A stretch of 61,047 nucleotides of DNA, the filler included, from Jimgerdemannia flammicorona (Eukaryota): assembly GCA_003990765.1 (NCBI GenBank). It is 2 parts of 2 records of this genome, joined end to end, with 100 filler letters (N's around TTAATTAATTAA, not from the genome) between each part and the next. Parts side by side here need not be neighbours in the genome. Positions count along the whole stretch, not along the records: positions 30,580 to 61,047 come from RBNJ01000443.1; 1 more part is not named here. One strand, 5' to 3'. A program made the position numbers and the translations under genes. This document shows, piece after piece, positions 37,446 through 60,662 of the stretch (positions are counted from its first letter, which is position 1; each line of letters begins with the position of its first letter). Below the pieces are notes generated by a model. It was not told where the DNA came from and made no database searches. It saw only the letters and a list, made by a program, of their open reading frames with translations.

Positions 37446-37912
37446 TGTAACATAGCAGATGCTTACTCTTGAAAGTATGTCGGATTTCTGTATCTTGAAA
37501 ACTTGACCATTCTGACTCTCGCAGAGTCTCTTGAAGTTGTAGGGGAGGGTGGGTGAGTTCAAAGTATATCTGCCCACAGGCTTACTAGTTCCTTTGCTAT
37601 CTCTTTGCTTTGAACTATTTCAATCTGAGGTTTATTCACTTGAAGATGCTGGGTTATTTATACAAGTTTGCTAGCTATGAGATGGCTACTGAGTTATGCA
37701 GCTAAGTTATGAGTCATTTAGACAATGTCTAGAAATTTAGACAATGTCGAAATGCTATACTAAATCAGGGTGTTCAATTTGGATAATGTCTAAGAATTTA
37801 GACAATGTCGAAATCAAAGACTGCTAACTATAAGGCTATACTACTTTGGGACTGGGTGCGATCAAGTGTCTATTCCCTATTTCCTTCTTCCAAATTTGGC
37901 TGTACCATCACA
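37446..37912 (-). repeat. 3' LTR, family B
   Basis: Direct repeat of 43689-44155; PPT adjacent at 37913-37925. Confidence 0.95.
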
Positions 37913-37949
37913 ACTTCCTCCTGAATAGATGGTCTCATCCCTGGGGCAT

Positions 37950-38411
37950 CTATTTAAACTCCCAGGCTTCAACCATCTGTATGGTCTTGTACTGTGCAAT
38001 TTGCTGTATGACTGTTTCCCAATGATGTCTCCTCACTTTCTCAAAGTTGGTGAGGGTTACTCCTCTCAGGTAGTCTATTGCTGGTTCATCTTCTCGGAAT
38101 AACTTGTGGATCCTTTTGGCAATGGTGATCTGTGAGTGGGAGAGTTGACACTCGGCAATCCAGTCCTCCTTGATCTTTGCTGGATCCTGATTGAGCACCT
38201 GCCCAAGCTTGAAGTACTCTTGGAATTCTGCCCAATATTGATAGGCTCTAAAGTGCGAGATCTGAGAGGGATGAGTCTGTACAATACTCTGAATATCTTC
38301 ATAGTATGTCTCTATGGTTGGAAGCTCGGTGGTGTGCCATTGTCTTTTGATGGCTCTTTGGGCAGCACTAGTGATCTTGAGTGCCATCAAAGTACTTTTG
38401 TTACTGGCCAT
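37950..38411 (-). CDS. ORF3 accessory protein of family B (153 aa, intact)
   Basis: Open ATG-to-stop ORF between integrase and PPT; ATG overlaps the last pol codons (TATGGCCAGTAA). Confidence 0.8.
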   Translation of the reverse strand: MASNKSTLMALKITSAAQRAIKRQWHTTELPTIETYYEDIQSIVQTHPSQISHFRAYQYWAEFQEYFKLGQVLNQDPAKIKEDWIAECQLSHSQITIAKRIHKLFREDEPAIDYLRGVTLTNFEKVRRHHWETVIQQIAQYKTIQMVEAWEFK

Positions 38412-41400
38412 AATATTTCTTGAGTCAGTTTCAGTGAATGGTGGTGGGGATTATTGTGCCTGAGGGTTTTCATAGCCAAAAGGTGGTCTCTTTTATATCT
38501 TACACAAGGTAAGGTCCTTCCCACTTGGGCTCCAGTTTTCATGACCATGAAGCTTCTACCATATTCCGATACACTAGGACTTTGTCTCCTATCTTGATAA
38601 TCTCCAAGGGCTTGTGGGTCTTTTCCGCATTCCTCTGTTGTAGTATCTGTGCCTTGGTTATGTAATCCTCAGCCTTCTTCCTGATTTGGTGTAGTCTCCA
38701 TATTTCTATGTCCATATGTTTCCATACAGCATCTCCATTGAATGATAGGGTTCCTTGAGAACATTCTTCTCCAAATAACATTTCTCAAGGGGTAAAATGG
38801 GTAGTTTGTAATCAGATATCCCAGAGAGCAGATAGTGCTATTGGCAGATAGTGATCCCAGTTCTCGTAGTTATCACAGATCTTGGCGATAACATTCTTGA
38901 GAGTTTTGTTGGTCCTTTCTACTTGTCCGTTTCCTTGGGGGTGATAGGCTGTGGTCCGAATGTGCTGGATCTTGTACTTCTTGTAGAGAACCTCAAAGAG
39001 CTGGTTCATGAATTCTGTTCCTCTATCTGTAGTTACTTGTGTTGGGGTCTTGAACTGGCAGATGATTTCCTTGTGGAAGAAATCGGTGATTGACTGTGCA
39101 TTGGCTTCCTTGAGGGGTCCTGCTTCTATCCACTTCATAAAAAGGTCTACGATGACAATGATGTATCAGTTACCAGTCAGGGTCAAGGGTAGAGGGCTGA
39201 TTACATCCATGCTATATGGGCAAATGGTACTGGTTCTATGTGTGCTGATCCTGGGGCTTGATTCTGTTGGTCTTGTTTCTGTTTCTGGCATTTGTTGCAT
39301 ATCTTGACAAATTGTCTGATATCTTCCTCCATCCCTGGCCACCATATTGTTCATCTTGCCTTGTCATATGTATTCGTTCCTTCTAGATGGCCAAGTTCAT
39401 ATACTGATTTCATTGCTTGCTCCTTCTTGTATTCTGGTATGACCAGTAGTTTTCCTTTCTTCAGTGTTTCTCTGTCAGTTTCGAATTGTTTCCTTGTCCT
39501 GTTGATAATCATTTGTGTCCATACTTCCAGATGTTGGGGCATCTTTCGCTGTCCCAGGTGTGTGATAATTCCATAGTAGATCTCCTTATTCATGTTTGAT
39601 TTGTTGGTTGGAGGTAGTTCGAGGTGTCCATGAGAGAGTATCTGCATTGGAATTTGTTCTTCCAGGGCAGTGTATGATGGTTACATCATAGGCTTATAAC
39701 TTCATTATCCATCTGGCATAGATTCCCTTGGGTTGTCCAGTTGTCAGTAGCCAGGTGAGAGCTGAGTGGTCCGTCTGGATGGTGAAGTGTCTTCCAGCCA
39801 GATAGTAGTGGAACTTTTCCACAGCCCAGATGACTGCAAGGCATTCCAACTTATAGGACTCATATTCTTTTTCAGCCCCTTGGGTTCCATGGCTAAGATA
39901 TGCAATGACATACTCTTTTTTGTCTTCTTTTTGAGCTAGGACTGCTCCTAGTCTCTGTGCACTTGCATTCATCTGAAGGATAAATTCTTGGGTCCAATTG
40001 GGTCGTCTGAGAATGGGTGCCTGAGTTAGTCTGATCTTGAGTTTGTCAAATGCTTTTTGTTGTCTGCCAGTCCACTGGAACTTGGTATCCTTCTTGTTGA
40101 GTTCATAGATTGGACCTGCAATGTTGGAGAATCCTCTAATGAATCTGTGATAGTAGGAGGCAAGTCCCATGAAGGCTTGGGCTTCTGTGACAGTAGTGGG
40201 CCTTGGGTATGCTGCTACCACTTGTATTTTGAGGGGGTCCATGTGTGTTCCATCTTGATTGATAATATGGCCAAGATAGGAGATCTTGATTTCTGCAAAC
40301 TTACACTTCTTGGGTTTGATATATAGGCCATGTTGTCTTAGTCTCTCCATTATCTGCTGTATGTGCTGCAGATATTCCTCAGGTGTCTTGCTGTAGATGA
40401 TTATATCATCGACATAGACCATCATCCATCTTCCCATGTCATAGTGGAAGATTTTGTTCATCATTCGCTGAAAGCTTGCTGGTGCATTGCACATTCCGAA
40501 TGGCATTCATAGGTAGATGTAGGTTCTGTCAGGGGTGATGAAGGCTGACTTTTCGCTTGCCATCTCTGTGAGTCCGATTTGGTGAAATCCTGAGTATAAG
40601 TCCAAGGTGCTGTAGTACTCTGCTTCATCTCCCAGTGTTATGTATAAGGATGTCACTGATGAGCGGCAGTAGTTGGTGATCCTTCTTGGTAACTGCATTG
40701 AGCTTTCTGTAGTCAACACAGAGCCTTGGGGCAAATTCTCCAGGGTTGCTTCCTTTTTTTGGGGCTAGTATGTACAACTGGTGAAGACCAGGGGCTACTG
40801 GCTTCTTTGATGATGCCGGCTTCTTCCATCTGCTTGATTTCTTCTCTGAGCCATTCTCAGTAGGCTGGCGGGACAGGTCTTGCCTTCTGATAAATTGGTT
40901 TGGTGTCTCCGGTATCTACCTTGTGATAGTAGTGTGGGGTCTTTCCCTTGATATCCTTGAAATCTGTGGCAAGGACATCCTCGAATTTGTGGAGTATTTT
41001 CTTGAGTTCCTCCTTGAGTGGGAATTCATCTCCAATGGTGTAACTGTGCTTGCTTGTGTTTTTCTCCTTCTTATGCTCGAGTTCGGTGATCTTGGTGCTG
41101 GTGAATACTCCTCTTCCTGTGGATCCGAATCCTTTCTTTCCTCTTTTCATTTCCTCCAGATTCTTGACTTCTATGATCCTTGGCTGTATGATTGGGAAGA
41201 TCAACATCTGTGCCAATCTGTCCTTCTTCTTGACTGAGAATGGAATTGTAGGATTGTGGTTCCTAGCAATAAGTAGAATTTCTCCGGTATAGTCTGAATC
41301 AATGACTCCTCCTTCGATTGTGATTTCGCTTCTAGCCAGGCTGCTTCTTGTCTTGAGAATCCCAACATGATCCTTTGGGATGGTCAGTTGCGAGTAGGGT

Positions 41401-43574
41401 GGTTGTCTGGGGTTCCAGTACAGTTTCTTCTACTGTAGTGATGTTCATTCTGGCTGCGTTTTCTGACTTGTATTCTGGCAAGACTGCATCAGGGTGGATC
41501 TTTCGAATCTTGACCTTGATTTCTTCTTCATCATCACTGTCCTCCAGGAGGGCTGGCAGTTTGTCATCTTCCTCCTTCTCTTCTTCCCTGATCTGTTTTT
41601 CAAGAGCTTTCTGCCTTTTTTCCTGGTAGATCTTATTGGTTCTGATGGTGTACTGGTAGCAATCGTTGACATGCTCCATACAGTACATCTTGATTCCATG
41701 AGGACAGACTCCTTGTTGGGCATAGCCTTTTGCAATCTTTTTGTACCATTCTTCTTCACTCATCCATCCAACTTTCTTCTTCTTTGAAATAGTCACCATA
41801 TAAGCTTCCTCTTGCTCACTCTCTTCTTCCTCCATATCAGACAGGACTCCTTTGTTGATATTGATGGGAATTCATATCTTCTGTCCGTGGTAGGTGATCT
41901 GCATCTTCTGAGCATTGAGATCAATTACCGCCTTGGCTTTGTGAAGCCATTGATTGCCGATGAGGATATCATAGTTAGTGGCATTGGTTACGATTACATC
42001 TACTGGGATTGTTGCTCCTCCGATCTTGATGGGAACATCTCAGATCTTTCCCAGAGGTGTGGCTCTTGTGCCATTGGCTGTGACAAATACTAGCTTAGTT
42101 GCTTCTTCCACATCCCAACCTAGGCACTCTGCTGCCTTCTTACTGAGGAGACATCCTCCTGCTCCTGTATCAATGATGGCTTCAAAGGTTCTATCTTCGA
42201 TTTGGCATGTTGCATAAGCAGAGGTTTTTCGATTATCCTCACTTTCTTCTCCTAAGTCCTCTTGAACATTATTGACCTCAGTTATCTTCCATCCTTGTTC
42301 CTTGGTTGTTTCAGTAAGTCCAAACCTCATTTGCTGTCTGAATGTTGGGATTTCTGCGAGCTGACCAAAGGTTGCATTGACCTTTTGTTGACTGAGATCC
42401 TTAAAGATATTATACTTGAAGGTCTCGGTCTTGCAAAGCTTCTTTTCTTTTTCTCCTTCACTGGCTGAAGTGGTTCCTCAGATGATATCTTGAACTGCTT
42501 GCTCCAGCTCGATATCTTGGTCCATCTCTTCAGCTTGACTTTCTGTGTCAGTTTCCATCCACTTTTCCACTGGGTTCTTCTTGGGTCTTCCTGGTGGTCT
42601 CTTGTAGGGTTCTTTGCAAGCATCCTTCTTGGTGGTCTGAGCAGGATAGGCCTCCCATTTCTCTTCATCAGATTCTCTGATTTCTTCAAAGGTGATTTTA
42701 TTAGCCTGCTCCTTGTTTTATGTGGCATTGCTTGGTTGAACCTTGTGTTTGGTTTCACTCAACATTCATAGGAGTAGTGATCTTCTTCTCCACAGCTGTA
42801 GCAGGTACCTTTCTTCTTGTCTGAGGTAGTGGCAAACTTCTGAACAGGGCGGCGATCTCTTCCCCGGATTTCCTTTACCATATCTCCCAGGTGGGCAGTC
42901 ATTTCAGCAAACCTTTTGGCAAGTTCCTCCATAGGGTCACTGTTCTTTTTCTGCTCTGTAGCTTTTGGCTGAGGTGTGTTTCGATTGAGCATTGTGGTGG
43001 GGATCACACTGGTTGCCTTGGGTGCCTTGATTCTGACTCCTGTAACTCTCTCTATTGTATGGTCTTGTGGGTGTCTGGCTATCTAGTATCGCTGAGCATA
43101 GGTGACCTTCTGTGGCAGATCCAGAATCACTGGTGGTGAGTGGATGGCCATGGCTATTTCTGGATGGACTCCTTTCATGAAGGTTACTTTGGCTAATTGA
43201 TCTCAGATAGCAGCAGCATAATCTGCAAGGATTATCTAATATCGAATCCTGGTACAGAATGTGTTTGGATCCTCACTCATTCCTTGGCATATTGTGTTGA
43301 GCTGATCCTTCAGAGCTTGCTTGATCTCATCTGTGTAATATGTATTTCAGAGCCAGGTCTTCTGTGCTGTCAGTATGGTATCGGCATCATTTCCTGCATG
43401 GGTTGTGGCTGTGAATGCTGCTCTGGCAGGGCCTTGTAGACTGAAGGGCATGAGGGCTACTTGCTGTGCTGCTGTCAGAGTCCTTACAGCAGCATACTGC
43501 TCGAAATCGTCAATGAAGATGATGATTGATTCATCTGAGATATATCCATGGAATACTGGTGGTCTCATATCCAT
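38401..43574 (-). pseudogene. Family B gag-pol, disrupted
   Basis: CYSCGEEDHYSYEC; AIIDTGAG; dUTPase GVIDSDYTGEI and RGKKGFGSTG; YVDDIIIYS; RNase H; TDRGTEF, HPQGNGQVER; WEGPY. Confidence 0.93.
41110..41520 (-). pseudogene. dUTPase domain of family B, between protease and RT
   Basis: IRKIHPDAVLP; IEGGVIDSDYTGEI; AQMLIFP; RGKKGFGSTG. Confidence 0.88.
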
Positions 43575-43688
43575 CTTGTCTGAGTATTGGGGCTCGGTTT
43601 GTATGGTTGTTCAGGGGGTGGTGGTTGTTCATTGTTCAGCTTGAAAGTGAGGGATTCATCTTAAATCACCAGCCAATGGGCACCAAGT

Positions 43689-44155
43689 TGTAATGTAGCA
43701 GACACTTACTCTTGAAAGTACGTCGGATTTCTGTATCTTGAAAACTTGACCATTCTGACTCTTGCAGAGTCTCTTGAAGTTGTAGGGGAGGGTGGGTGAG
43801 TTCAAAGTGTATCTGCCCACAGGCTTACTAGTTCCTTTACTATCTCTTTGCTTTGAACTATTTCAATCTGAGGTTTATTCACTCGAAGATGCTGGGTTAT
43901 TTATACAAGTTTGCTAGCTATGAGATGGCTACTGAGTTACATGGCTAAGTTATGAGTCATTTAGACAATGTCTAGAAATTTAGACAATGTTGAAATGCTA
44001 TACTAAATCGGGGTGTTCGATTTGGATAATGTCTAAGAATTTAGACAATGTCGAAATCGAAGACTGCTAACTATAAGGCTATACTACTTTGGGACTGGGT
44101 GCGATCAAGTGTCTATTCCCTATTTCCTTCTTCCAAATTTGGCTGTACCATCACA
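43689..44155 (-). repeat. 5' LTR, family B
   Basis: Followed on the minus strand by ACT-TGGTGCCCA PBS. Confidence 0.95.
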
Positions 44156-47100
44156 GTATATAGATAATTCCAATATCTATTCAGAAAATTTTAAAGAACA
44201 CCTACACTACCTAGAGGAATTCTTCAAACTCACCTACAAGAATCACTTGAGATTGAATGCAAAGAAATGCTACTTTGGGAAACAGAAACTTGAATTTCTT
44301 GGATTCATAGTATCAAAAGAAGGAATCCATGCAGAACCAAAGAAAACTAAGAAGATCAACAATTGGCCAGTACTCAAGACTCTAAAGGAAATACTATTAT
44401 TCCTGATGCTAGTATCCTACTATGGAAGATTTATCAAGGACTTTGCCCAAATCACTGCCCCAATCCGAATCCTTCTCAAGAAATGAGTGCTATTCAAATG
44501 GACAGAATCACAAGAAAAAGCCTTCAAAGAACTTAAGAACTTCATGACTACAGCACCAATCCTTATGTGCCCCAATCTACAGAAGCCATTCATCTTGTAT
44601 ACAGATGCTTCTAAAGATATCCTTGGAGCAGTTCTAGCCCAAGAAGGACCTGATCAACAGTACTATACAATAGCTTATACAAGCAGAGCTATCAATCAGC
44701 AGCAGATGAACTATGGTAGCACCAAACTGGAATATCTTGCAGTCATATGGGCAGTCACTCTATTTAAGTATTACTTCATCAGAAAAAGATTCATCCTGAT
44801 CACAGACCATACAGCTCTCAAATGGCTATTCAACTGCAAGAAACCTACCAGAATCCTAGCCCACTGGATCCTTATCCTTCAGGATTACAAAATCACCATC
44901 ATCTACAAAGTAGGGAAAGCTCATAACAATATTGATATACTTTCCCACCAGCCCCAATGAACCAGAAGAAAGGTGTCTCAAGGAACTACACCCTAAAGGA
45001 AGCTTCTCAGACCATCAAAGTATAAGAAGATCTCATCTGAAAAGAATATCAGAAAGTCCACCAAGGACAGGCGAATGTAGAAGAGAAGTTGTGAACAATA
45101 CACCAATATTGGCCCAATCTTAGAATACAAGTCTGGGACATACTTAAGAAATGTGACATCTGCCAGAAGTAATAAGGAAGGAAGAACTATCAAGCACCAC
45201 TGCAACCATTGCACCACCAGATAACATCTTTCAGAGATGAGGAATAGATGTAATTGGACCTCTACCAGTTACACCAAGAAGAAATAAATATATTCTTATA
45301 TTTGTGGAACATCTGACCAAGTGGCCTGAGGATTTCTCAATGGAAATCACAGATGCCCTAACCATTGTAGGTCTTCTCCATAGACTCACACTCAGATATA
45401 GACCCCCAGAAGAACTCATCTCTAACTGAGGCACAGAATTTATCAATAATATAATCACAAGTTATACCTGAATTCACAAGATCCACCTAAAATGGACCAC
45501 ATCATACCACTCTCAGACCAATAGTATGACAGAAAGAATGAACCAGACCATCAAGAAAGGACTTGCCCAAGTCAATCCTACCAATTGGGACCTCTGCTTA
45601 CCTGAGATCCTATGGGAAATTTGGAATACCCCTGCTGCCTCCACCAGACAAAAGCCATTCAAAATGATGTTTGCCAAGAAGACCAGGACTGCTGATCATG
45701 AGAATCTCAGAGATCTCCTCAAGAAGGCAGAACAGTTATATAATCAAGCCCAAGGTCAGATTATCAAAGCCCAGGAAAGACAAAAGTATTATAACCAGAA
45801 ACAGAAATATCAGGAGATCAAGATTGGAGATCAAGTACTAGTTTGGAGAAGCATGATTGAAACAAATTTTGCCACCAAATTGGAACCCAAATAGGAAGGA
45901 TCTTATCTTGTACATAATATCTGATAAACTAGCATCTATTTAAGCAGCATAGATAGATGAACCCTGAGAACACCAGTATACATCAATTACCTCAAACTAT
46001 ATCTTCCCTCTACACTATGAGCCAAAGGATTGATCAGTGCCTCCAGACATTGGTCCTCAGCTCCTTCCAGACTCTGCCAGTTCTTCTACCCCAATTTTGC
46101 CAAGCTAATGGAAACCCCATTCAGAAGATCCAAGTTTACTAAGAAAATCTCACATGGGCGAGACACCTACTTCAAGTCCACCAACTGCAGGCCTATTATG
46201 CAATTGGTGAACAATTACAGAACCTTCCAGCCTTAGAGCAGACCTACATCAGGAACACTACAAGTCTGACCAGAAGAGATACTACTGCTGCAAACAGACT
46301 ATACACTATTTATAAATGAAATGTCACAGCTCTGATACAGACACAGTTTTCTCTGAATGACATTCAAGAAATGAACCCTATTACCTATTTGAGCATCATC
46401 AATTATGTCGAAATTCTATTCTCTGAAGAAGAAGAAGAGTCTATAGAATGGAGTGACCCTAGTACAGATAATGAAGATGACAGAACAGATATAGATGTAG
46501 AAGCAGCTTATGCTTATTAGGATGATGACTAAAGAACAGTCAGGGACAGACTATCCTTCAGTGGGGGCTGATGTAACAAACCAAAATGTACCATCCGAAT
46601 TATAACTTAACCAGATGATGTGAATAATTAGCATACTTAATCAGATGATGTGGGCTCTCAGCATAACATAACTTCCAGTGTATCATATTTACTCATGCCC
46701 CCACACTTATAATTAGCCAGAATACCAGAGTCTGTTTACCTGTACAGACTCTGTACATCATATAGACTCTGTATACTGTATAGGTCCTGTATACCATACA
46801 GACTCTGTATATCTGCCATAAGTAGCAAACCTATAGTTAGCTACATAGCAATCAGATAGCAACTAACTTGTATAAATTACCCCAGAGACAAGAGTGAATA
46901 AACCTCCATCTGAATTGAAGTGCAAACCAAAGAAGCCTCTAAAGATTGAGCATTGGTCCTCTTATTCCCACTCCAGTCTACTTTCTGATATAAAGCTGAA
47001 TTTGCCACCAAGTTCAAGTGAAGAACTTTGCTGCTTTTGAAATTATTGTTATTGGTATGCTTGCCAGATAAGCCTAAAGAACCCAAGTCCCCACCACCTA

Positions 47101-47958
47101 AGAGAAAGCCACCTTGCTCAAGCCAGTTTCTGATATAACTTCGCAGTGATCCATTCATGCAAACAAAGCCAGTCTTTGATGCAACTTTGCCAAGAGACTC
47201 TTTCCAAGAAAGCTGCCAGCATATTTCCCAGTTGAAGCCACCAATTTAGAAGAATCTGTACCATTGTATTCTTAGTTGAAGCTGCTATTTTCGAGTTATC
47301 TGCATTCATAGAGAATCCACAACACCCAAGTTATTATTTCCAGAAGAGCCTGATTCAGAAGAATCTGTGCCATCTGAGTTATTTCCCAGAGAGCTGCCAG
47401 TTAAGAAGAAGAATCTGTGACATCTGAGTTGTTCAAGTTATCTGAGTTGTCCACCACAAAAATTATTAATTGTTCCCAGTAAGCCTGAGAAGAACCTGCT
47501 GCCAGTATAATTCCCAGTAAGCTGCTATTTTAGGAAACTGCTGTACTATACAGAGATAACCCATTGCCCAAGAAAGGAATACTGCTAAATTACCAGACCA
47601 TCATGCATAAGGAACCCATGCTGCACAGAGATCATTATGCTATACAAGATTGCCATGCTCAGAAATTGCATACTTTTGGAGACTATCACCCAAGAAGGAA
47701 GCTGCTCATGCTATACACGAAATTCTACCAATTCTCAGTTGACCCAAGAAGGAAACCCATTCATACAAATCGCTGCTACACCTAGAGAATCGTCCTAATA
47801 AGGAAATCACTAGAATCACTTGCAGATATCCAGCTTTGACTATTATACCACTAAACACCAACAAGGACCTCAGGAATCTTAGAACATTTTGGGGCTCAAG
47901 CCAAACTACATCAACACCCAACCTTGTAATTTACCTCTATTGAGCCAGGCATGTTATA
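44156..47958 (+). mobile_element. Ty3 family C 3' fragment (RT end, RH, IN, ORF3, PPT, 3' LTR 46572-47958)
   Basis: Collinear with the reverse complement of 54959-58720; LYTDAS; PPT CAGTGGGGGCTGA then TGTAAC. Confidence 0.9.
46017..46532 (+). pseudogene. ORF3 of family C (171 codons, internal stops)
   Basis: MSQRIDQ...AYYAIGEQL...acidic tail; ATGA overlap with the pol stop. Confidence 0.8.
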
Positions 47959-47988: not shown

Positions 47989-49876
47989 TGTGATGGCAAC
48001 TTCAAAACCAGTGATGTCAGAATTCAGAAGACTGTTCAGACTTCATAAGTCACTAGTTACAAATTGTGACTCAATTGTGACTCATCTTAATTATAAGATG
48101 ATCTGTGTCTGAACCCATAATGACTCATAATAACCTCAGTATTATACTATCTCAAATCAGATAACCCTACTCTCAAAGCCAAAGAAAAGACTCTTATGAT
48201 ATAAATGAAGTAATAAGAAGAAAAGTATAAAGCATCAAATAGGAGACTTTTAAAAAAATAAAATATCTACTATCTATCAAATAGCAAGATCAAGAAGCCA
48301 TCTAGGTCTATCAGTTTAAGAACAAATATTCACTAATATCAAGAGAGCTATAAGGTTATGTATAAGAAAGACTCCAAGCCTAAGTCTCTATATAAGAAAT
48401 CTCTACAACTATACCCTCAACTACTATAAAATAGAGATAAGAATTACCATCACTACTGAGTGTTTTTGGATATAACAAGAATATGAAAAAGGTCATCAAC
48501 TCTGCCAAAAACCCTTATAAACCAGCTCTTAAGAAATTGTGGACACTACTTATATGGGCAGATATAAATAGAAATTAGTCAAAAGAGTTCATCAGATCTT
48601 TAGTAGGCTTTTTCTAATCTAGAATATATCAAAGTCTCTGATATTTAAGAACTGATAAGCTGCTATACAGACTATCTTAAATAAATGATTACAGAAGAAG
48701 TCCAATCCACTATCATAGTTAAGAGTAATGAGATTTAAGATCTTTAGAACCTATCTTAGAGAACCATCCAGACTAATTTATTTATAGTTTGATTGTACTA
48801 TTTCAAGACTCTCTCTTGAGAGTCTGTTTTTCTCTGAATTTTACAGATATTATCTACTTTGTAGATGATATCACTATTGACTGTAGACCTCAAGAGCAGA
48901 ATGACTATATATACTTTGATGATATCATCAACAATGATATCACCTCTTAAAACAACTTAGAGAATAATAATGACCCACTTATTTTGCTTAAAGACAATAT
49001 TAATAACTTCCTTTTCTTACCCTCAGAGCTCTCCACTGACTTCAGCACATTTGTAGAGGATGTAAAAAATAATTTAGCTAGACTCTCTGAAGAAAAGGAG
49101 GATGAAGATGATATAATCTCAGTTATACTAAATTTTAAGTTAAATGAGAATAGCTCTATTAGCCAAATTGAGTAAGTTAGTTAGTTGAACAAATAGTAAC
49201 TATATATTAACTAGCTCAATTTATCACAAATATAAAATTTGCCTTATTCAGTTAGGTAGTTACTTGAATTCCAAAATCATACTAATTAGTATCTTCTAAT
49301 AATTGTAAGTTACAACCAATTACTTAGTCTTATACATATATAGTCTGAAAACTATAAATATCCTCTGATATATAATAAATAAATCTTAGTCAATTGGTCA
49401 GTAATACTAACTTAAGTTCTGAAAGACAAGGAAGTTGAGTGTAAGAACTTTGGAAAAAGACTCCAAGAGCTGAGAAATTACTCTTGCCATTGTGAAACTG
49501 AAGATTAAGATCAAGATCACATATTCAAGATATAAGTCAGTTGGTTAGTAAGTCAAAAAACCAAATTTTACTAAGTAAAGAAATCACTACTATTAGAAAA
49601 CAAGACTATGGGAAGACCCAAGAATATGCTAGACTGTCAAGAAATATAAAGAATATGTGAAAATTATTGTCAAGAACTATATAAATAACTACTGAATTCT
49701 GAATGACCAATAACTTGAGATATATGAACTTCAACTCAATATGAATATAAACAAACTAAATAGTAGTATATATGAATATTGAGCTGAGATTACTGTTAAG
49801 AAACAAACAGAAGATAGTAATTCAGAGATATATTGAGCTATATAGGAGTAATAAGAGATATAAATCACATGCTATA
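47989..49876 (+). repeat. 5' LTR of Ty3 family D (~1.9 kb, contains an ORF)
   Basis: TGTGATGG...GCTATA; followed by TTTTAGGAACTTAACTGAGA, which reads as a G-to-A/C-to-T-decayed tRNA-Pro-type PBS (TGGGGGCTCG..CGGGA); homologous to the solo LTR at 22485. Confidence 0.75.
48263..49175 (+). pseudogene. ORF inside the family D LTR, second copy
   Basis: EYEKGHQL...KLVKRVHQIF...LEYIKVSDI...SEEKEDEDDII..SSISQIE*. Confidence 0.7.
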
Positions 49877-51070
49877 TTTTAGGAACTTAACTGAGAAAGT
49901 TTTTTTAAGACTTCATCATTTGGCTCAAGAATCCAGCAGCTATCTATATTGAAGAATTCAGAAGAAACTAGGCAGCAGCAAGATCATGGCCAACAACAGC
50001 CTACTTCAGAAAGAGAAGCTCATATTATTATGAGGACAGCCCTTACCTTGTTTCAAACTAGTAGTCAGAAAACTAAATCAGAAGAAAGAAGTAATACAGA
50101 TTATGGTTTAACCTAAAAGAAAAGAAAATAACTCAGAGGACAACCTGAGTCTATTAAGATCTAAGGCCTAAAATAAGAAGAAGATTTTTTTTGAAGAATA
50201 TCAGACTCTAATCTACATTAGAGATTTAGGTAGAAGTGACTACATTTCTACTATCATCACCTGAGCTACTTTGCTGTATTAAGTATACTTTGAAATATCT
50301 GAAAGAGAAGAAGACTACTATTCCTATCTTCCAGAATAAGAGAAAGATAATGATTAGAGAAGTCAACCAACCTACCTAAGAGATGAATCCAATCTTTATT
50401 ACTACTCAAGCAGTAATATAGACTCTTGGCAAGATAAATGGAACCCTACTGCTTTATAACAGTAAGAGGTAGATGAACTGAACATTGGCTATATCAGTTC
50501 TATTCTAATTACTAAAATCTCAGTACTCTGGTCCTTCATACTCCAATATTATCCATAAGCAACAAGAAGCTCTAGCTCTCTCAGTACTTTAGTATTTAGT
50601 GACCACCATTTCTCAATTAGAGAATTACTACCATGGAATCTCTACTCTAGCTTTAATTAGAAGGGTCAGACTCTCATACTCTCACCAAGATACTACCTTT
50701 TATCAGTACCACTAGTTTATTAAATATCTTTACTATCTCTATCCCTACAAGCATTATTAAGAAACTCTACCCTAGAACCAGACTCAGATAGTAAAAATGA
50801 ACTAGATATAAGTTATCTTTAGAAATTTCATTAAAGATATCAAGAAATTCTTTTGAGAAATTGAAGTACAAAACAGTAGCTAAGTAGTAAGATACTCAGA
50901 GAAAGCTCAGAATTATGGAATCACTTCTAAGAGGACCTGCTTTACAGAAGTACATCTAAGCAAAGTAAGTTGGAGGAGTTATCTATAAGTAGAATATATA
51001 TGCTAATAATATTTAAGCAAATAGAGATTATGTAGATATATATAATATTTATAAAACCTGGCTCTATATC
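49877..51070 (+). pseudogene. Family D leader and gag remnant
   Basis: Follows the PBS; decayed coding-like sequence from ATG ~49986. Confidence 0.45.
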
Positions 51071-51073
51071 TAG

Positions 51074-54000
51074 TACAATAATCTTAAGTATTAATAGAAA
51101 ACACAAGAAGCTTTAACCTATATGAGCTAAGCTACTAATAAAGCTCCAAAAGGCTTCTATCATTGGATTCAAGCTCAGATGGTTAAGATATAATTGCAAC
51201 CTACAGTTCAACTAGCCCAGGTCCCAACTAACTTTCTCAATAGAATATTCCCAGAGCTTCAAAGATAAGTTATTAGGATGGACTATTATAATGATTCCAG
51301 TTTCTTTAAGAGGAAGTAGCTAAATCTGGAAGTTTTAGTTGATCTAAAGTAGCTTGAAGAGATACTTAAAGGTTTAAGTGTTCTCAAAAGATTTCTGAGA
51401 GAAAATATTCTGAACTCTATTTAGGTAGAGAATAAGGATATTTATACATGATCTAAAAGAAACATCTGGAAGGATCTTGGAAAGAAAGAGAAATGCCAAG
51501 AAATAGATTTTTACCAGAGCTGACTAATAATATTCTACAATGTTCTAAAAGGTTCTATGACTAGCTAAGATAAGATACTTAGTATCAAGGAAAGACAAGA
51601 ATGTTCTAGTAGTGTCTGGGTGGTGAGAGAAGGTTTCTAATAGTGGAACATAGTAGAATGTTCAAGAAATGACAAGAAAAGACTAACTAAAAGATGCAAA
51701 AATGTACTAAGACTAAATATGACTGTGAAATTATAACATCCCTCCCTCTTTAAGAACCAATATCCTCATTGAGTTCTTAGGTAACATAAGACTAGATATA
51801 CTTAACCAAAATTCTTCAAACTTATATCAGTATATTGGCAGGAATTGGTCATTCTTATATAGAGCAGAGGGCCTATTATCAGACTAACCAACTAGGAGAG
51901 GTTTGAACCCAGCTATTAGCTTCATTTTGGTGGACTTCTTGTTCATTAAATGTTCTGCTGGTTCTGGGGTCTCAAAGTAAACTTCTGATATATAAGGCAC
52001 TAGTTATTGCCAGAGGTTATTGATAATCCAAGGAAGTCACTACAGAGATTGGATAATGCATTTTACCTTAAAGTCTTAAACTAGATCTTGAGAGTTCTTG
52101 AGGTTGACCAGTAGTTCCCAGGTAGCATTATATTCAGGGTAACCCATCCACTTGACTAGGTATTCAGGACAGTGGTAGTGGATTCATTTTTTAAGAATTT
52201 TCTTAGCTTCATACTCAATATGGTCTTTAATAATCACAGAAGCAGAAGGCTTAGAAATTTGACCAGGATAGGGTAGTGACTGGTTCCAGGTCTTGAGATG
52301 TGATACATGAAAGACTGGGTGTACTCTTATTGTTTCAGGTAGCTTGAGATGGTAGGTGAATGCAGAGACTTGTTCAGTAATCTCAAAAGGTCCAATATAT
52401 ATAGGTTAGAACTTGTTTGAAGAGTGGTTGTCTTGAGATTATATCTTGAGATTCTCAGTAGACAGTAGGACTTGATCTCTAACAATATAAGTGACATTAC
52501 CGCATTTCTTGTCAGTATACTTGGCTTGATACTATTGAGCCTTCTGAAGATTCACAATAGCAATCTTGAGTAGTTCATTCATTTTATCTATAAGGTTCTT
52601 GGCAGTTGGGTCTTGTGTTTAAATGCTTTTCTTAAAAGAAAATAGACTTGCAGAGGTGTTGAAATATTGACTATAAAGTAACCAAAAATGGGAAAGACCA
52701 GTAGATGATTGGATAGTATTGTTGTATATATACTCTGCATAAGTCAGATAGTGGTCTCAATCATCTTACTTGTAAGAAATATAGTTTCTAAGCATTTGTT
52801 CTAGAGTTCTGTCCATGCACTTGGTTTGTCCATTAGTTTGTAGGTGAAAGACAGTAGATATAGCCAATTGGGTTCCCAGGGTCTTAAGAGAGTTTGCCAG
52901 AAGTGACTGGTGAACCTGGGGGTCACAATCACTAACAATTACTTATAGTAGGCCATAGTAACAGAAGATGAACTTGAAGAAGATTCTTGCAATCTTGAAT
53001 GTAGTAGCATTGGTAGTGGTTGGTTCAGCAACCATAGTCTTGGTCAGGCAGTCAACAAATATGATGATAGCAATCAGCACCAGACTGAGTTTGTGGTAGT
53101 TGAGTTATAAAGTCTATGGTAACTTACTCAAATTTCTTGGTGGAAATTGGCAGTAGTTGTAGCAACTGGCTAGTGCTTAGTTGGAAGACTTATTGTGCTG
53201 ACATAAATTACAGCTGACAATATAGTTCTTGATTTCCTTGACCATGCTTGGTCAATAGTAGTGGTGTTGAATGTTCTTGACAGTCTTCTCAATTTCCAAG
53301 TAACTGACAAGAGAGAGTTATGATGTTCTTGCAAAACCTTGTAGCATAGGTTCATGTTTTCAGGTAGGTAGACTTGATCTTGATGAAAGATCAGGTTGTT
53401 CTTGACAGTATCTATATCCTTGAGCTCATTTGAGAAAACTCTTTTGGCAACTGTGTCTTCTTTGTAAGCTTGCCTGATTTGGTCTAGGAATTCTGATACC
53501 AAGGTGACCTGTATGATTGTGGTGAGGTCTGGGTATCTTGATAAGGCATCTGGTACTACAAGTATCTTGTCAGGCTTGTAGATGATCACCAGGTTGAAGG
53601 TTTGAAGCTTGAGGCTCAACTTGGCTTGTAAATGTAACAGGGTAGATTGGGTGTTGATGTACTTAAGAGATTGATAATCAGTAATGACATCAAACTCAAT
53701 ACCTTCTAGATAGCATTGCCAGTGGTCTAGTGTATGTATTATTGCCAGTAGTTCCTTCTCATAAGTGGCTAGCTTTTGTTCAGCTAGGGCCAACTTGTGG
53801 GACTTGAAAGTAATAGGATGATGTCCTTTGTCATCATCTTATAACAGGACTGCTCCAATAGCAAAATTTGATGGATCAGTGGTGACTGTGAATTTTAGGT
53901 CTTGATTAGCATTATGTAGGACTAGAGCATGGGTCAGGTGGTTCTTGAGTTCTTAAAAGGCTTATTGACAAAAGAGGTCCCAGGTATAGGGTATATAGTG

Positions 54001-54958
54001 GTCTGAGTGTAGGGCCTTCTTCATAAGGTTAGTCAGTGGCTCAGTAATACTAGAGAAGTTTCTGACAAAGCAGTAGTAGTAGCCAGCTTGACCAAGGAAG
54101 GATCAGAGTTTGACAGAATGAGTCATTCTTCAATTACTTCTATCTTGTTTGGGTCTACTTGAATTCCTTATATAGAGACAATGTGGCCAAGGTATTTAAC
54201 TTGTTTCTTGAAGAATTTATACTTCTTGAGCTTGACATAAAGCTTGTGTTATTATTGGATCTCCAGAACTATTCAAATGCATTTGAGGTATTCTTCTTTA
54301 ATTGCACTAAAGATCAGAATATTATCAAGATATACCAATAGGAAAATAAATTGTTAGTCCTTGAATATCTTATTTATCAGAGTCTGGAATATAGCAGGTG
54401 CATTGGTGAGACCAAATGCTAAGACGAGAAATTTGTAGAGTCCAAAGGGGGTTATAAATACAGTCTTGGGAATGTCTTCTGGCTTGATTTGAATCTGGTG
54501 GTACTCTGATATGAGATCTAACTTGGTGAAGTACTTGGTATTCTTGAGAGCATCAAAGATTTGATCAATTAAGAGTAGCAGATAGCAGTTCTTGACAGTG
54601 AGTTTGTTGAGTATATGGTAGTCTATACATATTTGCAGGGTACTATTCTTCTTCTTGACAAATAAGACTAGTAAGCCATAAGGAGATTTGCTTGGCTGAA
54701 TGGTTCCTCATGTAGATAGTTCTTCTAGTTCTTTCTTAACTGCTTCAATTTCAAGTGATAACATATGATATATGTAATTCTTATATGGTATAACTCCTGG
54801 GATCAGTTTAATTTCATAATCAACTTCTTGTATAGGTGGTAGACCAGGTAGCTTGTCTGGAAAGATATCCTTGAATTCTTCTAGCAGTAACTTAACACTT
54901 TCATTGACTGATAGACTCTTGTCTCATTTCTTGGGACAGACTATTATAATAAAGATAT
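51074..54958 (-). mobile_element. Chromovirus-type Ty3 family E 3' part (RT-RH-IN-chromodomain, PPT, 3' LTR ending at 51738; left LTR boundary approximate)
   Basis: VYLDNILIFS; YEKELLAI..LDHW; SDCDPRFTS; EYLVKWMGYP..NATWE chromodomain ~52100-52220; PPT AAGAGGGAGGGA then TGTTAT. Confidence 0.85.
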
Positions 54959-56335
54959 TGTAACATGCCGGCTCAATGGAGGCAAATTACAAGGTTGGGG
55001 GTTGATGTAGTTTGGCTTGAGCCCCCAGTTACTTTGTCAAAAAGCAACAAAATGTTCTTAGATTCCTGAGGTCCTTGGTGTTTAGTAGTACAATAGTCAA
55101 AGCTGGATGTCCGTGAGCAATTTCCTTATTGGGATGGTTCCCTGGGTATAGTGGCAATTCATGTGTCTTTTCCTTCTTGGGTCAACTGAAAATGATACAA
55201 TTTTGTGTAGCGAGGTAATTTCCAAAAGTATGCGATTTCTGGGTAATGGTCTTGGTGCAACGATCCTTATGTAGCATGACAATCTCTGCATAACGATCCT
55301 CATGTAGCATGACGATTTCCAAAAGTATGCAATTTCTGGTGGATAGCTCGATTTGGCTCACTGGGAATGTAAGGTATGGGTTCTTCTTACTGGGAATAAT
55401 AGCTCGGATGACGCGGATAATTCGAATAACTGGGAATAATGCTGGCAGTAGATAACTTGATAACTCGGGCTCACTGGGAACAACAAATAACTCAGATGGC
55501 ATGAATTGGGCTCTTCTGGGAATGTGGATAACTTAGAAATGGCGGATGATGCAGATTCTTCCTGAATTAGTGGACTTCTTGAAAATGGCAGCTTAACTGG
55601 GAATTAACTCAGATGGTGCAGATTCTTCCTGAATCAGTGGCTTCAACTGGGAATACGGCAGAAAGGGTCTCTTGGCAAAGTTATGTTAAAGACTGGCTTC
55701 ATTTGCATGACGAATCACTGCAAAGTTGCATCAGTAACTGGCTTGAGCAAGGCGGCTTTCTTGGGAAGGCAGAGAATAACTTGGAAATGGCGGCTTATTC
55801 CTTAAGCAGTGGACTACTCAAATGGTTGCAAAGTTCTTCCTTGAACTTGGTGGCAAATCAGCTTTGTATTGGAAAGTGGACCGGAGTAGAAAGGGGAAAT
55901 AAGCTCACAATCTCCTAATAGTGGCTATAGAGTTCCTCTTGAAGTGTGGTAGGCAGACTTGTCTTTTGCTTCATTTTCGGACTTTTCAGACTGAGGTTCA
56001 TTCACTCTTGTCTCTGGGGTAATTTATACAAGTTGGTTGCTATCTGGTTACTATGTGGCTAACTATAGATCTACTACTTATGGCAGGTGTACAGAGTCTG
56101 TATGGTGTACAGGACCTGTACAGTGTACAGAGTCTGGATGGTGTACAGAGTCTGTACAGGTAAACAGACTCTTTCTGGTATGTCTGGCTATTTATACAGT
56201 TTTCTGCAGCAATGGTTGCTGGTTACTATACTGTGTGTTCACATCATCTTGCCTAATTATTCACATCATCTGGTTAAGGTGTTTTGGTTCATCACATCAG
56301 CCCCCACTGAAGGGTAGTCTGTCCCAGACTATTCT

Positions 56336-56851
56336 TCAGTCATCATCCCAATAAGTATAGGCTGCTTCTGCATCTATACTTGTTCCATCATCTTCATTGT
56401 CTGTACTGGGATAACTCTATTCTATAGACTCTTCTTCTTCTTCAGGAAATAGAATTTTGACAGAGTTGATGATACTCAAATAGATAACAGGGTTCATTTC
56501 TTGAATATCATTCAGGGAGAATTGTGCCTGTGTCAGGGCTGTGACATTTCGTTTGTAAATGGTGTATAGTCTGTCTGCAGCAGTAGTGTCTCTTCTGGTC
56601 AGACCTGTGGTATTCCTGATGTAGGTCTGTTCTCGGGCTGGGAGGTTCTGCAATTGTTTACCGATTGCATAATAGGCCTGCAGTTGGTGGACTTGTAGTA
56701 GGCACTTGGCCAGGGTGAGATTTTCTTGATGTGTTTGGATCCTTTGAAGGGGGCTTCCATTGGCTTGGCCAAATTGGGGCAGAGGGACTGGTAGGGCTTG
56801 GAAGGAGCTGAGGACCAATGTCTGGAGGTGCTGATCGATCCTTTGGCTCAT
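56336..56851 (-). CDS. ORF3 accessory protein of family C (144 aa open; 171 aa if TAG is read as TGG as in the other copy)
   Basis: ATGA overlap with the pol stop at 56848-56851; acidic tail SYPSTDNEDDGTSIDAEAAYTYWDDD. Confidence 0.8.
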
Positions 56852-59729
56852 GGTGTAGAGGGGAAATATAGTTTGAGGTGATTGATGTGTACTGGTGTTC
56901 TCAGGGTTTGTTCATCTATGCTTCTTAAATAGATATTAGTTCCTCTGATATTGTGTACAAGATAAGGTCCTTCCCATTTTGGTTCTAGTTTGGCAGCAAA
57001 GTTTGTCTCAATCATGCTTCTCCAAACTAGGACTTGATCTCCAATCTTGATCTCCTGATCCTTCTGTTTTCGGTTATAATACTTCTTTTGTCTTTCCTGA
57101 GCTTTGATAATCTGTCCTTGGGCTTGATTATGTAGCTGTTCTGCCTTCTTGAGGAGGTCTCTGAGATTCTCATGGTCAGCAGTTCTGGTTCTCTTGGCAA
57201 ACATCATTTCAAATGGCTTTTGTTTGGTGGATGTGGCAGGGGTGTTCCAAATTTCCCATAGGATCTCAGGTAAGCAGAGGTTGCAAATAGTAGGATTGAC
57301 TCGGGCAAGTCCTTTCTTGATGGTCTGATTCATTCTCTCTATCATGCCATTGGTCTGAGGGTAGTATGATGTGGTCCTTTTGAGGTAGATCTTGTGAATT
57401 CAGGCATAACTTGTGATTATGTTGTTAATGAATTCCATGCCTCGGTTAGAGGTGAGTTCTTCTGGAGGTCCATATCTGAGTGTGAGTCTATGGAGGAGGC
57501 CTACAATGGTTAAGGCATCTGCGATTTCCATCAGGAAAGCCTCAGGCCACTTGGTCAGATGTTCTACAAATACAAGGATATATTTGTTTCTTCTTGGTGT
57601 AACTGGTAGAGGTCCAATTATATCTACTCTCCATCTCTGAAAGATGTGAGTGGGTGGGGGAATCGGTTGCAAAGGGGCTTGATAGTTCTTCTTTCCTTGG
57701 TACTTCTGGCAAGTGTCACATTTCTGGATGATATCTCAGACTTGAGTTCTGAGGTGAGGCCAGTGTTGATACAGTTTTCAAATCTTGTCTTCTGTACTTA
57801 TTTGTCCTTGATGAGCCTTCTGATGTTCTTTATGGATGAGATCTCCTTGTGCCTTGATGGTCTGAGGAGCTTCCTTTAGAGTGTAGTTCCTCAGAACACC
57901 CTTCTTCTGGTTCATTGGGGCTGGCAGGAAAGTACATTAACATTGTTGTGAGCTTTCTCTACTTTGTGGATAATGGTGATTTTGTAATCCTGAAGGATAA
58001 GGATCCAGCAGGCTAGGATTCTGGTGGGTTCCTTGCAGTTGAATAACTATTTAAAGGCTGCATGGTCTGTGATCAGGGTGAACATTTTTCCAATGAGGTA
58101 ATGCTTGAACAGGGTGACTGCCCATATGACTGCAAGGTATTCCAGTTTGGTGCTGCCATAGTTCATCTGCTGCTGGTTGGTAGCTCTGCTTACATAAGCT
58201 ATCACATGATGCTGTTGATCAGGTCCTTCTTGGGACAGTACTGCCCCGAGGCCATCTTTAGAAGCATCTGTATACAAGATGAATGGCTTCTGTAGATTGG
58301 GGCACACAAGGATTGGTGCTGTAGTCATGCAGTTCTTGAGTTCTCTGAAGGCTTTTTCCTGTGACTCTGTTCATTTGAATGGCACTTCTTTCTTGAGAAG
58401 GATTCAGATTGGGGCAGCGATTTGGGCAAAATCTTTGATAAACCTTCTGTAGTAGGATACTAGCATCAAGAATGATAGTGTTTCCTTTGGAGTCTTAGGT
58501 ACCAGCCAATTGTTGATCTTCTCAGTTTTCTTTGGGTCTGCATGAGTTCCTTCTTTTGAAACCATGAATCCCAAGAATTCAAGTTTCTGTTTCCCAAAGT
58601 AGCATTTCTTTGCATTTAATCTCAAGTGATTCTTGCAGGTGAGCTTGAAGAATTCCTCTAGGTGGTGCAGGTGTTCTTCGAAATTTGCTGAATAGATGTT
58701 GGAATCATGCATGTATACAATCAGACAGTGATGGATCAAGGGAGCATAGACCAAATTCATCATCCTCTGGAATGTGGGGGGTATATTGCAGAGTCCAAAG
58801 GGCATTCAGAGGTATTCAAACAGTTTTCCTAGAGCAAGGAAGGCTGTCTTTTGAATGTCCTTGGGGTCCATGGAGATCTCATGGAATCCTGCAAAGAGGT
58901 CCATACTGCTGAAGTATCTGGCATCTTGTAACTGGTCCAAAAGGTCATCGATTCTGGGCAAAGGATAAGTATCCTTTTCAGTGACTGAGTTGAGTTTTCT
59001 GTAATCCACACAGAGTCTCCATCCTCCTTTCTTTGGTACAATAAGTATAGGGCTGGCCCAGGGGCTGGTAGAGGGTCAGATGACTCCATTGTCTAAAAGT
59101 TCTTATATGTGCTCTTTTTCGAATGTTTTTAAGTGATGGGGTATTCTATAGAGTTTCTGCTGGATGGGTGTTGCATTTCCTATATTTATGCTGTGGTGAT
59201 ATGATGGGTTGTATGGCAGGTTGCTATAATTGGTGATGAAGATATCTTGATATTTGTTGAGAAGTTCTACTAGTTGTTGCTGTTGTTGAGGTGTCAATTC
59301 TTCCCCAATGTTGGTGGAAGGCTTCACTGTCTCCTGGGTCGCAGAGGGGCCTTTCCTTTCTTCTGGGACCTTTTGCCGTTTCCTGATAGGTTTAGTTCAT
59401 AAATCTCCCTGTGAGTTCAGTTGAGAAAAGGCACCAGATGTCCTATGATGGTTCCTTTCAGTAAGATGATGGTCTCCTAACTTTGGTTGGTTGCTCGGGA
59501 GTGTACTGGGTTCATTTTGTCAGGGAATGTGTGTCCCTCTACGTCCAGATGTGGAATGTCTTCCTTGGGTTCAAAGAAAAGATTTCTGGGGTCGGGTGGT
59601 GCAAAGATTTCAAAGGTAGTTTGTTCTCTGGGCTCCAGGATGAGATTCTTGTGCAGTCTAACTGGTAGCCAGTACACTTGCTGGGGAACATTCCTCTTGA
59701 GGTGGTTGACTTGAAGGAGATGTACCTCC

Positions 59730-60130
59730 TTCCTGTCTGAACTTCCGAATCCTTTGGCTTGCCTTGTTCCCTCAGTTAGCTCAGAAACTTCCTGTAACTG
59801 TGGGGTCTTCATCTTCATGAAGACTGCTTGGGCAATCTTCTGTCCTCTAATGATTCAGTGCCATTCTGTACTGCTGTTGTGTAGGATGTCTTTAATTTCA
59901 CCTGTATATCCTGGGTCAATGGTTCCTCCTTCTACAGTTATCCCTTGTCTAGCAAGTCCAGACCTTGAGATCAGTTGAATATAAGCTCCTTGAGGTGGCT
60001 GCATGGCTAATCCGGTTCTGACCATGAAGGTTTTTCCAGGCTTGATAGATTCATCCTCCAGGCTGTGAAGATCGTATCTTACATCCTCTGGGTGGGCTTT
60101 GGTCGGGGGTTTGGCCTTGGGGTGCAGCAG
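59730..60130 (-). pseudogene. dUTPase domain of family C
   Basis: All five dUTPase motifs recognisable; one internal stop. Confidence 0.9.
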
Positions 60131-60662
60131 GGCATACTGGGCAATATCCTTGCTGAGTTTGGGCTTTCCTAAGGCTGAAGCTCTACTAGCAGAGAGCCTC
60201 CAGGCTCTGAGGTTGAGGTGTGGCCATCTGGCTCCAGTAGCGGGGTCTCGGAGATAGTTGATTCCTCTTCTTCCTATAGGGTCTAGGGCTTCCATGATGT
60301 TGGCAGTATCTTCTGCCCATCCTTGGCAGGTTGCATGTCTGATGAGAGCTAGGATGTCTTCTCCCAAATCATAGATCTTGAGGATTCTTTTTCCTGGCTT
60401 CTTGGTCTGGCTTTTTCGAATCTGGCTTTTTCAGATCTGGCTTCAGTTATCTCCTTTCCTCAAAGTGTGCACTGCAATATCATAACTGAGGTGAATCTTC
60501 TGATGTCTGCAGTCTTGGCAGTCAGGGTGTCTCCCATGGTTGCAATATCCCATTGCTCGGAAATGGTATTCCTAGCTGTTTATCTCCTGTTGTCTTGGGA
60601 ATCAGTACCCATCTTGATCATAGGTGGGTGGAAGGGTAGACAAGGGATCGTATGCAGGGCAT

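Follow-up and report, generated by a model that had tools for sequence, protein, structure and literature searches.

The LTRs of retrotransposons are ordinarily non-coding, with the sag gene of MMTV as the textbook exception, according to PMC4667437. The locus at 47989–49876 raises the questions whether an LTR can carry a complete gene of its own, how such a gene could have come to lie there, and what its product might do. An initial annotation had described a gene of about 300 codons embedded within this LTR and spread by solo LTRs, and had called LTR-encoded genes rare.

Setting of the locus

The window, i.e. the whole stretch of 61,047 nucleotides from Jimgerdemannia flammicorona that was analysed, is a nest of decayed mobile elements, including several gypsy-type retrotransposons, a LINE-like reverse transcriptase (RT), hAT and others. 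The old repeats in it are nearly devoid of CpG. Across nine pairs of LTRs, 106–207 transitions were counted against 1–23 transversions (for example 119 against 3), the transitions occurring mostly at CG and CA (by context: CG 75%, CA 36%, CC 20%, CT 6%). Four families are distinguished here: D1, to which the LTR at 47989–49876 belongs, D2, its sister by LTR, and families A and B, located in the window as follows.

37445–44155: family A
44164–47958 and 54960–61047: family B

A dUTPase lies ahead of the RT in all four families (in the window at 59855–60430 and 40857–41429), and was not seen in the chromodomain-type gypsy element at 51289–54955. The family B LTR (46572–47958, 54960–56297) is 1.3–1.4 kb long and internally repetitive; its TATA motif and AATAAA are found only about 300 nt in, so that its length would be due to R/U5 and not to U3. 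Elsewhere in the window, two long, GC-richer and internally repetitive arrays (5084–8590 and 16000–19484) are inverted to each other and have frames open on both strands, and the N gap that joins the two contigs holds a short linker-like word at 30520–30540, an assembly feature.

Boundaries and copies of the D1 LTR

47989–49876, plus strand: 5' LTR of D1, a decayed dUTPase-bearing Ty3/gypsy element, about 1.9 kb, with 5'- and 3'-positioned copies in the genome
49880–49897, plus strand: PBS complementary to tRNA-Pro, by match to the 3' end of the genome's tRNA-Pro
49898–51288, plus strand: first part of the D1 internal region, with the leader and sequence in gag position, common to other 5' copies

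The D1 LTR begins with TGTGATG at 47989 and finishes with GCTATA at 49876, and other copies finish with CACA or TACA; the boundaries originally given for this unit of about 1.9 kb, with TG..CA-like ends, are thus correct. The PBS-like site reported behind it corresponds at 13 of 18 positions to the tRNA-Pro 3' end, all five mismatches being G>A or C>T, and at 17 of 18 positions in copy L029. A DNA search of the own genome with the D1 LTR gave 42 matches from 40 scored of 692 candidates, and a similarity-ranked sample of 39 D1 copies was fetched with flanks. The PBS follows the LTR in 11 of these, most of which continue into the internal sequence of window positions 49877–51288, and a common integrase end with a purine tract (PPT) precedes it in 18. 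Neither flank was found in ten copies, comprising three clear solo LTRs (both ends, identical 4-bp flanks), one probable solo (three of four flank bases alike) and others that are cut or ambiguous.

The internal order in both D1 (L104, L040) and D2 (L071, L078) is dUTPase, RT-RNase H, integrase, which is the gypsy order. With direct repeats on both sides, a tRNA-type PBS, a PPT, 4-bp target duplications and a pol order of RT-RNase H and integrase, D1 and D2 have the characteristics of Ty3/gypsy elements, and 47989–49876 is a genuine LTR of such an element. The target duplications of D1 and D2 are nearly all TA-centred (CTAG, ATAT, CTAT, GTAT, TTAT, ATAC, ATAG; one GCAG), reflecting either a target preference or a decayed CA/TG/CG core.

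The LTR of a different gypsy element cuts off the D1 internal region at 51288; the first part of that region (49898–51288), read with X in three frames, gave no Pfam match. The D1 region behind the PBS (window 49987–51288 and the D1 5' copies) matches neither Pfam nor the gag of D2. Long coding-like sequence also precedes the dUTPase in D1 internal regions.

A solo copy and the frequency of solo LTRs

22485–27796, plus strand: solo D1 LTR, split by an insert, with CTAG at 22481–22484 and 27797–27800
22764–23645, plus strand: LTR gene of the solo LTR, interrupted by stops and frameshifts, with TATA motif 1 at 22697
23678–26646, minus strand: relic of a PIF/Harbinger-type DNA transposon in the solo LTR, about 3 kb (PF04827, Plant_tran, E 3e-19 and 2e-8)

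The lone copy annotated at 22485–27796 is indeed a solo D1 LTR with CTAG on both sides; as it stands, however, it is not a 1.9-kb unit, being split by an insert of about 3 kb. Its identity to the LTR at 47989–49876 is 71% over 1228 nt, 79% over 229 nt and 67% over 175 nt. The inserted relic ends in a 37-nt inverted repeat (23683–23719 / 26608–26644). A 48-nt stretch of the LTR flanks the insert on both sides (23630–23677 and 26645–26692, 87.5% alike), far exceeding the usual length of a target duplication. It may have arisen by local re-insertion or by a join of two LTR copies, and in the latter case the argument from CTAG for a solo copy would be weakened.

Solo LTRs are left-overs of recombination and not mobile units. 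They constitute 3–4 of the 39 D1 copies and 3 of the 20 D2 copies in our similarity-ranked samples, a minority for which 'spread by solo LTRs' is an overstatement and 'retained by solo LTRs' the apt wording. The gene does survive solo-LTR formation, as had been supposed: the solo D1 LTR of the window carries it in broken form, and three D2 solo LTRs carry stop-free genes.

Evidence for a protein-coding gene

48263–49175, plus strand: LTR gene of about 290–300 codons in the D1 5' LTR, broken by stops and frameshifts

The ORF3-like gene had been noted in both window copies, and is present in both (48263–49175 and 22764–23645), each time in broken form. The coding capacity was assessed in 29 aligned D1 copies, in which a stop was counted as hard if it occurs in most copies and fewer than two copies show the less-decayed sense codon. 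By this measure the gene frame contains no hard stop in 289 codons, compared to 5–21 in the other five frames and 2–7 in the 40–93 codons of the flanking LTR frames. The frame is kept by 8 of 10 indels shared between at least two copies, versus 10 of 49 private indels (Fisher p 0.0006). A codon-position test on shared transversions, which has low power, did not reach significance (24 of 63 at third positions, p 0.25), the flanks giving similar values. Two further loci, L137 and L138, were obtained from 198 pattern matches in a metagenome scan, and dN/dS amounts to 0.13–0.17 for D2 versus L137 and 0.22–0.31 for D2 versus L138, with dS near saturation and with D2 copies that had been selected for few stops. 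The hard-stop, indel and dN/dS comparisons establish past selection on the predicted protein, and identify the LTR-borne gene as a real protein-coding gene.

A protein search of the own genome gave at least 137 matches, from 135 scored of 6512 candidates. The 21 long matches without internal stop represent D2, and this search, itself a lower bound, gave no sign of a single host gene.

The gene in both LTRs

The D2 LTR is about 1.53 kb long, and its gene is stop-free in 13 of the 20 fetched copies, a set selected for few stops. The check proposed in the initial annotation, to find full-length family D elements with the ORF in both LTRs, bears out the claim that the gene is duplicated in each element: it was found in both LTRs of all 11 extended D2 elements (two second LTRs are covered only in part, and the fetched locus L109 was omitted from this test). 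Of eight D1 elements that were extended, one ran as far as its second LTR, 10.2 kb further on, and the first 84 codons of the gene are seen there before the contig ends. The 4-bp flanks are identical in six of seven readable D2 LTR pairs. The PBS of D2 matches tRNA-Thr(TGT), as does that of family A (ARAGORN called one of the two tRNA loci).

At L076, about 310 nt before the 3' LTR, the integrase and the PPT of D2 are separated by a conserved spacer that has an ATG immediately behind the integrase stop and contains a TATA-like word; no protein match was found for this spacer. A stop recurs in its frame at about codon 25 and the frames do not join, for which reason a nef-like frame starting before the PPT and running into the LTR gene was rejected. 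Further relatives of the LTR gene, with 31% and 48% identity, are located on the opposite strand at L071 (G000:C31:35189-35497) and L080, adjoining D2 copies.

Relatives inside and outside the LTR

37950–38411, minus strand: ORF3 of family A, between integrase and PPT and outside the 468-bp LTR, a distant homologue of the LTR gene
56417–56851, minus strand, with a second copy from 46017, plus strand: ORF3 of family B, outside the LTR, a possible homologue

Profile comparisons indicate that the LTR gene is homologous to ORF3 of family A: a protein profile built from D sequences only finds this ORF among 410 window stretches with E 1.3e-6 over about 140 residues, and hhalign aligns the two with E 4e-5 and a probability of 70%. 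For the family B ORF3s the same search of 410 window stretches gave E values of 0.14 and 0.06, and hhalign a probability of 0.4%, and homology is no more than suggestive here. Of the earlier proposal that ORF3 moved into U3, the location in the LTR and the homology to an ORF3 outside it in family A (by the profile match) are upheld, while the direction of the move is plausible only.

Of the two metagenome loci, L137 looks like an undecayed D1 LTR, and L138 encodes a 43%-identical protein. The DNA upstream of the L138 gene resembles both the D2 leader (z 3.7–5.6) and the spacer before the D1 PPT (z 3.3–6.0, 4/5), and not the A or B controls. A purine tract followed by TGT is located directly behind its stop codon, and none is found at the site where the LTRs of D1 and D2 start. 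The L138 gene, on a single contig of 1.5 kb that includes neither pol nor a second LTR, thus apparently lies before the PPT, a layout consistent with a PPT that moved from one side of the gene to the other. The internal position before the PPT that characterizes aORF-3S genes is accordingly seen in family A and, apparently, in L138, but not in D1 and D2, where the PPT precedes the gene.

We propose that an accessory ORF3, together with its promoter, ended up downstream of the PPT, the tract that determines where the LTR begins. Reverse transcription would then copy the gene into both LTRs, and recombination between LTRs would leave a whole gene in each solo LTR. In this way U3 would have become a self-contained cassette, consisting of TATA motif 1, the gene of about 280–300 codons, and the ordinary TATA motif and poly(A) signal of the LTR. 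We infer both the PPT shift and its direction. The D2 spacer was also considered as a decayed ORF3 of the A type, and showed no trace of it with the PPT excluded (z 0.1–1.5); no likeness was detectable between the D1 and D2 spacers (z -0.7 to 2.0).

Candidate promoter and poly(A) motifs

48200–48206, plus strand: TATA motif 1, upstream of the gene, its candidate promoter
49353–49379, plus strand: TATA motif 2 and AATAAA, putative U3/R region, found in this D1 copy with the relaxed pattern only

The LTRs of D1 and D2 have the same order, i.e. the LTR start, a leader of about 200 nt, TATA motif 1, the gene, 180–210 nt, TATA motif 2, and AATAAA about 20 nt behind the latter; D2 carries four 35-nt repeats between the gene and TATA motif 2. 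The strict combination of TATA motif 2 and AATAAA was identified in 16 of 29 D1 and 19 of 20 D2 copies. The LTR of family A and one of two family B LTRs have it as well, although they lack the gene, so that it probably represents the ordinary promoter and poly(A) signal of the LTR, which would place the gene in U3, with a border set by these motifs. U3/R/U5 borders as such are a matter of RNA data, as outlined in PMC3601003.

TATA motif 1 is present in 28 of 29 D1 and 19 of 20 D2 copies, with the start codon following 55–100 nt behind it; a spacing of 57–88 nt describes D1, D2, A, B and L138. A TATA motif is similarly found 80–86 nt before ORF3 in ten of ten A and ten of ten B copies, where it overlaps integrase codons, and about 80 nt before the gene in L138. 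As the copies are related, the count of lineages weighs more than that of copies; the shuffle control for the motif ignores shared ancestry, and the independent units are about five lineages. The best argument for TATA motif 1 comes from the D-I-K codons of the integrase, which read TATAAA in all ten copies of A, with ORF3 behind the integrase, versus GAT ATC AAR in all 11 of D2, with the gene in the LTR; the integrase tails of A and D2 are similar.

In a genomic transcript the gene would be the final cistron, and would hence need a message of its own. TATA motif 1, gene and AATAAA all lie within the LTR, so that every individual LTR, solos included, contains the gene together with a candidate promoter and a poly(A) signal. 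We infer transcription of the gene from TATA motif 1. In one of three RNA runs, consisting of contigs of uncertain kind from which start, strand and level are unreadable, the LTR was deeply covered and most of the adjoining pol hardly at all; this was not counted as evidence. The LTR leader was also considered as a relic of the integrase tail, which DNA alignments did not support (z -1.1 to 1.8 against A and a single 3.4 against B).

LTR gene and RT tree in conflict

Two points had gone unremarked in the initial annotation, namely the TATA motif of the gene itself and the disagreement of the LTR gene with the RT phylogeny. A tree built from 12 RT-RNase H rows groups D1 with B (100/100), apart from A and D2, and a single clade of D1 and D2 is rejected (p-AU 1e-5). 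The RT-RNase H identity is 38–43% between D1 and D2 and 61–66% between A and D2; for the LTR protein these values are 50–51% and 21–24%, respectively. The non-coding leaders of D1 and D2 are also alike from the LTR start (z 3.0–5.4 in seven of eight comparisons), whereas the internal DNA (gag, pol) of the two barely aligns, and D2 gag pieces had no match in three D1 5' copies. A and D2 have in common their PBS (tRNA-Thr), their PPT and 64–68% identity of internal DNA.

Because the accessory gene is more alike than the RT, an exchange of U3 is the best explanation, and we regard such a swap between the D1 and D2 lineages as likely. A gene-bearing U3 would have passed between the distant gag-pol lineages D1 (tRNA-Pro) and D2 (tRNA-Thr), most simply by template switch, for which intermolecular strand transfer, as described in PMC6894440, supplies a mechanism. 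The R/U5 part was assignable to neither A nor D1 as origin (z at most 2.6 versus 1.8).

Without a swap, the gene would have lain in or beside the LTR in the common ancestor of A, B, D1 and D2, evolving slowly where it overlaps U3 signals, and rapidly, with shortening, outside the LTR. The accessory-gene tree is compatible with this history, as it does not reject a clade of D2 and A (p-AU 0.15), a result explained by the very long branch of A; the ORF3s of both A and B are short and on very long branches, and the decay of D1 blurs identities. However, both the accessory gene and a non-coding leader would then have to be better conserved than RT-RNase H (50% versus 38–43%, at equal decay), and the leader DNA aligns while that of gag and pol does not, which makes descent without exchange rather unlikely.

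Possible role of the protein

No Pfam family was found above cut-off for P0001-P0004, P0011-P0013, P0015 and P0016. The family includes 13 public proteins, all unnamed or hypothetical (13 of 5108 candidates in an alignment search). A protein search with the decayed D1 read-through found none among 721 candidates, a search with the stop-free D2 protein found six of 472, and a profile search against 1.84 billion representatives gave six matches, of one length class.

The LTR protein has a basic N-terminus of 40 residues and a strongly acidic C-terminal half. No membrane segment or env-like signal peptide was found, the hydropathy maxima of five family members being 0.47–0.96 (0.49 over 19 residues for the LTR protein). 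A fold model from 10 sequences had a mean pLDDT of 38; with 16 sequences, a confident helical core (pLDDT 80–95, residues about 70–160) and a disordered tail were predicted. The best fold match (Z 4.0, rmsd 4.5, 80 residues) may be a mere common helical arrangement. DNA-binding domains of the ParB/SopB/VirB/KorB/Spo0J kind recur in the top 50 fold matches, all of which are weak, and Foldseek gave no match at E<=0.001 in the PDB and viral models. The leads from the ESM Atlas are mixed, including helix-turn-helix and plasmid-partition families, a phage translation repressor and a closterovirus coat protein.

From the helical core, with its weak ParB-type matches, and the acidic tail we tentatively suggest, as a possibility that falls short of being probable, that the protein is a DNA-binding trans-activator of the element's own promoters which, like foamy-virus Tas, would be translated from a short mRNA of its own.

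With the same anatomy, the protein might instead act on RNA in the way of Rev or the CERV protein of Cer1, helping to export, translate or package the genomic RNA. The basic N-terminal 40 residues, the Atlas matches to a phage translation repressor and a closterovirus coat protein (scores 0.87–0.91) and the precedent of CERV, as far as it is described in PMC10309623, are in line with such a role. These Atlas matches, however, share fewer than 170 features and are mutually inconsistent, and the fold matches that recur are DNA-binding domains, so that we consider an RNA-directed activity somewhat unlikely.

VANC and Bet are proteins with a role in countering the host. The LTR protein could similarly counter host silencing or cytosine mutation, its dose being multiplied by its presence in every LTR. 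The differences between paired LTRs, almost all transitions and weighted towards CG and CA, suggest that the host attacks these elements hard, and a dUTPase is present in all four families; the role of Bet is outlined in PMC6950176. No similarity to known anti-silencing proteins was found in the Pfam, fold and Foldseek searches, however, and the gene-bearing LTRs are themselves heavily mutated, which leaves this role improbable.

That the open frame arose by chance, or is a defunct piece captured from the host, and has no role might be argued from the missing Pfam family, the broken gene in both window copies and the non-significant transversion test, but is already largely refuted, and very improbable, in view of the hard-stop depletion, the frame-keeping indels, the low dN/dS, the 13 public proteins that conserve the protein down to 24–35% identity and the own-genome search, a lower bound, that gave no sign of a single host gene.

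We favour, with moderate confidence, the explanation in which a U3 cassette arose through a PPT shift, was later exchanged between gag-pol lineages, and, more tentatively, may encode a trans-activator.

Comparison with known systems

The gene family occurs inside the LTR (D1, D2), behind the integrase (A) and apparently before the PPT (L138), and the TATA motif travels with the gene. The series of D1, D2, A and L138 offers a natural test of gene recruitment by PPT shift, of the trading of U3 and of the role of an accessory protein. In practice, repeat annotation will call hundreds or more gene-bearing LTRs of this genome non-coding. If the cassette and its trans-activator are as proposed, a regulatory layout of complex retroviruses would exist in a retrotransposon outside the retroviruses; if the exchange between families is correct, the end repeat itself would be a portable gene. 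That the LTR is an exchangeable gene cassette encoding a trans-activator, moved between gypsy lineages, with solos persisting as dispersed helper genes once the element has disappeared, is speculative and seems unlikely to hold in full. In the literature searched, with subscription papers mostly outside its reach, no gypsy-type retrotransposon with a whole gene in U3 was found.

Lentiviral nef likewise has coding sequence in U3; it starts upstream of the PPT, and a single LTR holds only part of it. In D1 and D2, by contrast, the LTR encloses the gene from start to stop codon as well as a TATA motif. A case of LTR swapping is reportedly known from soybean. U3 can be derived from a different co-packaged RNA, as PMC6894440 describes for LTR swapping. 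Unlike in such known cases, the RTs of D1 and D2 are only about 40% identical, their primer tRNAs differ, and the U3 thought to be exchanged carries a gene.

The additional sense ORFs of plant LTR retrotransposons (aORF-3S, ORF3) are described as internal, located either behind pol and before the 3' LTR or ahead of gag (PMC7264820), and an extra ORF3 is also reported for dUTPase-bearing elements of bdelloids (PMC5408684). The likeness consists in an extra non-env gene behind pol, which divergent elements have in common, typically as a separate transcription unit, as far as these two sources describe it (PMC7264820, PMC5408684). Those genes differ in being internal and described as expressed from spliced messages, whereas D1 and D2 have the whole gene and its TATA motif inside the LTR.

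Sag is a superantigen and a type II membrane glycoprotein. PMC4667437 describes betaretroviral sag as lying mostly in U3, with one described promoter inside U3, and as preserved in solo LTRs, 490 of its 527 contigs with sag being free of other retroviral genes; through sag, LTRs that defy alignment elsewhere can be compared across lineages. As with sag, the gene of D1 and D2 appears to lie in U3 (by the motif-based border), is duplicated in both LTRs and is kept in solo LTRs. D1 and D2 differ from MMTV in being Ty3/gypsy elements without env and not a betaretrovirus, their protein has no membrane segment, no Pfam match and no detectable likeness to Sag, solo LTRs are a minority of the sampled copies, and relatives of the gene are found on both sides of the PPT.

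Foamy-virus accessory genes are situated at the 3' end and made from an internal promoter, Tas being a DNA-binding activator of the LTR and internal promoters, and bel2 extends into U3, as described in PMC6950176. Family A, with its TATA motif in the integrase tail, has the same layout. Unlike the gene of D1 and D2, tas lies outside the LTR; the two proteins showed no link in sequence or in fold, and activation would apply here by analogy. In position and persistence the LTR gene of D1 and D2 is thus like MMTV sag, and in regulation possibly like foamy-virus tas, while it is a member of neither family.
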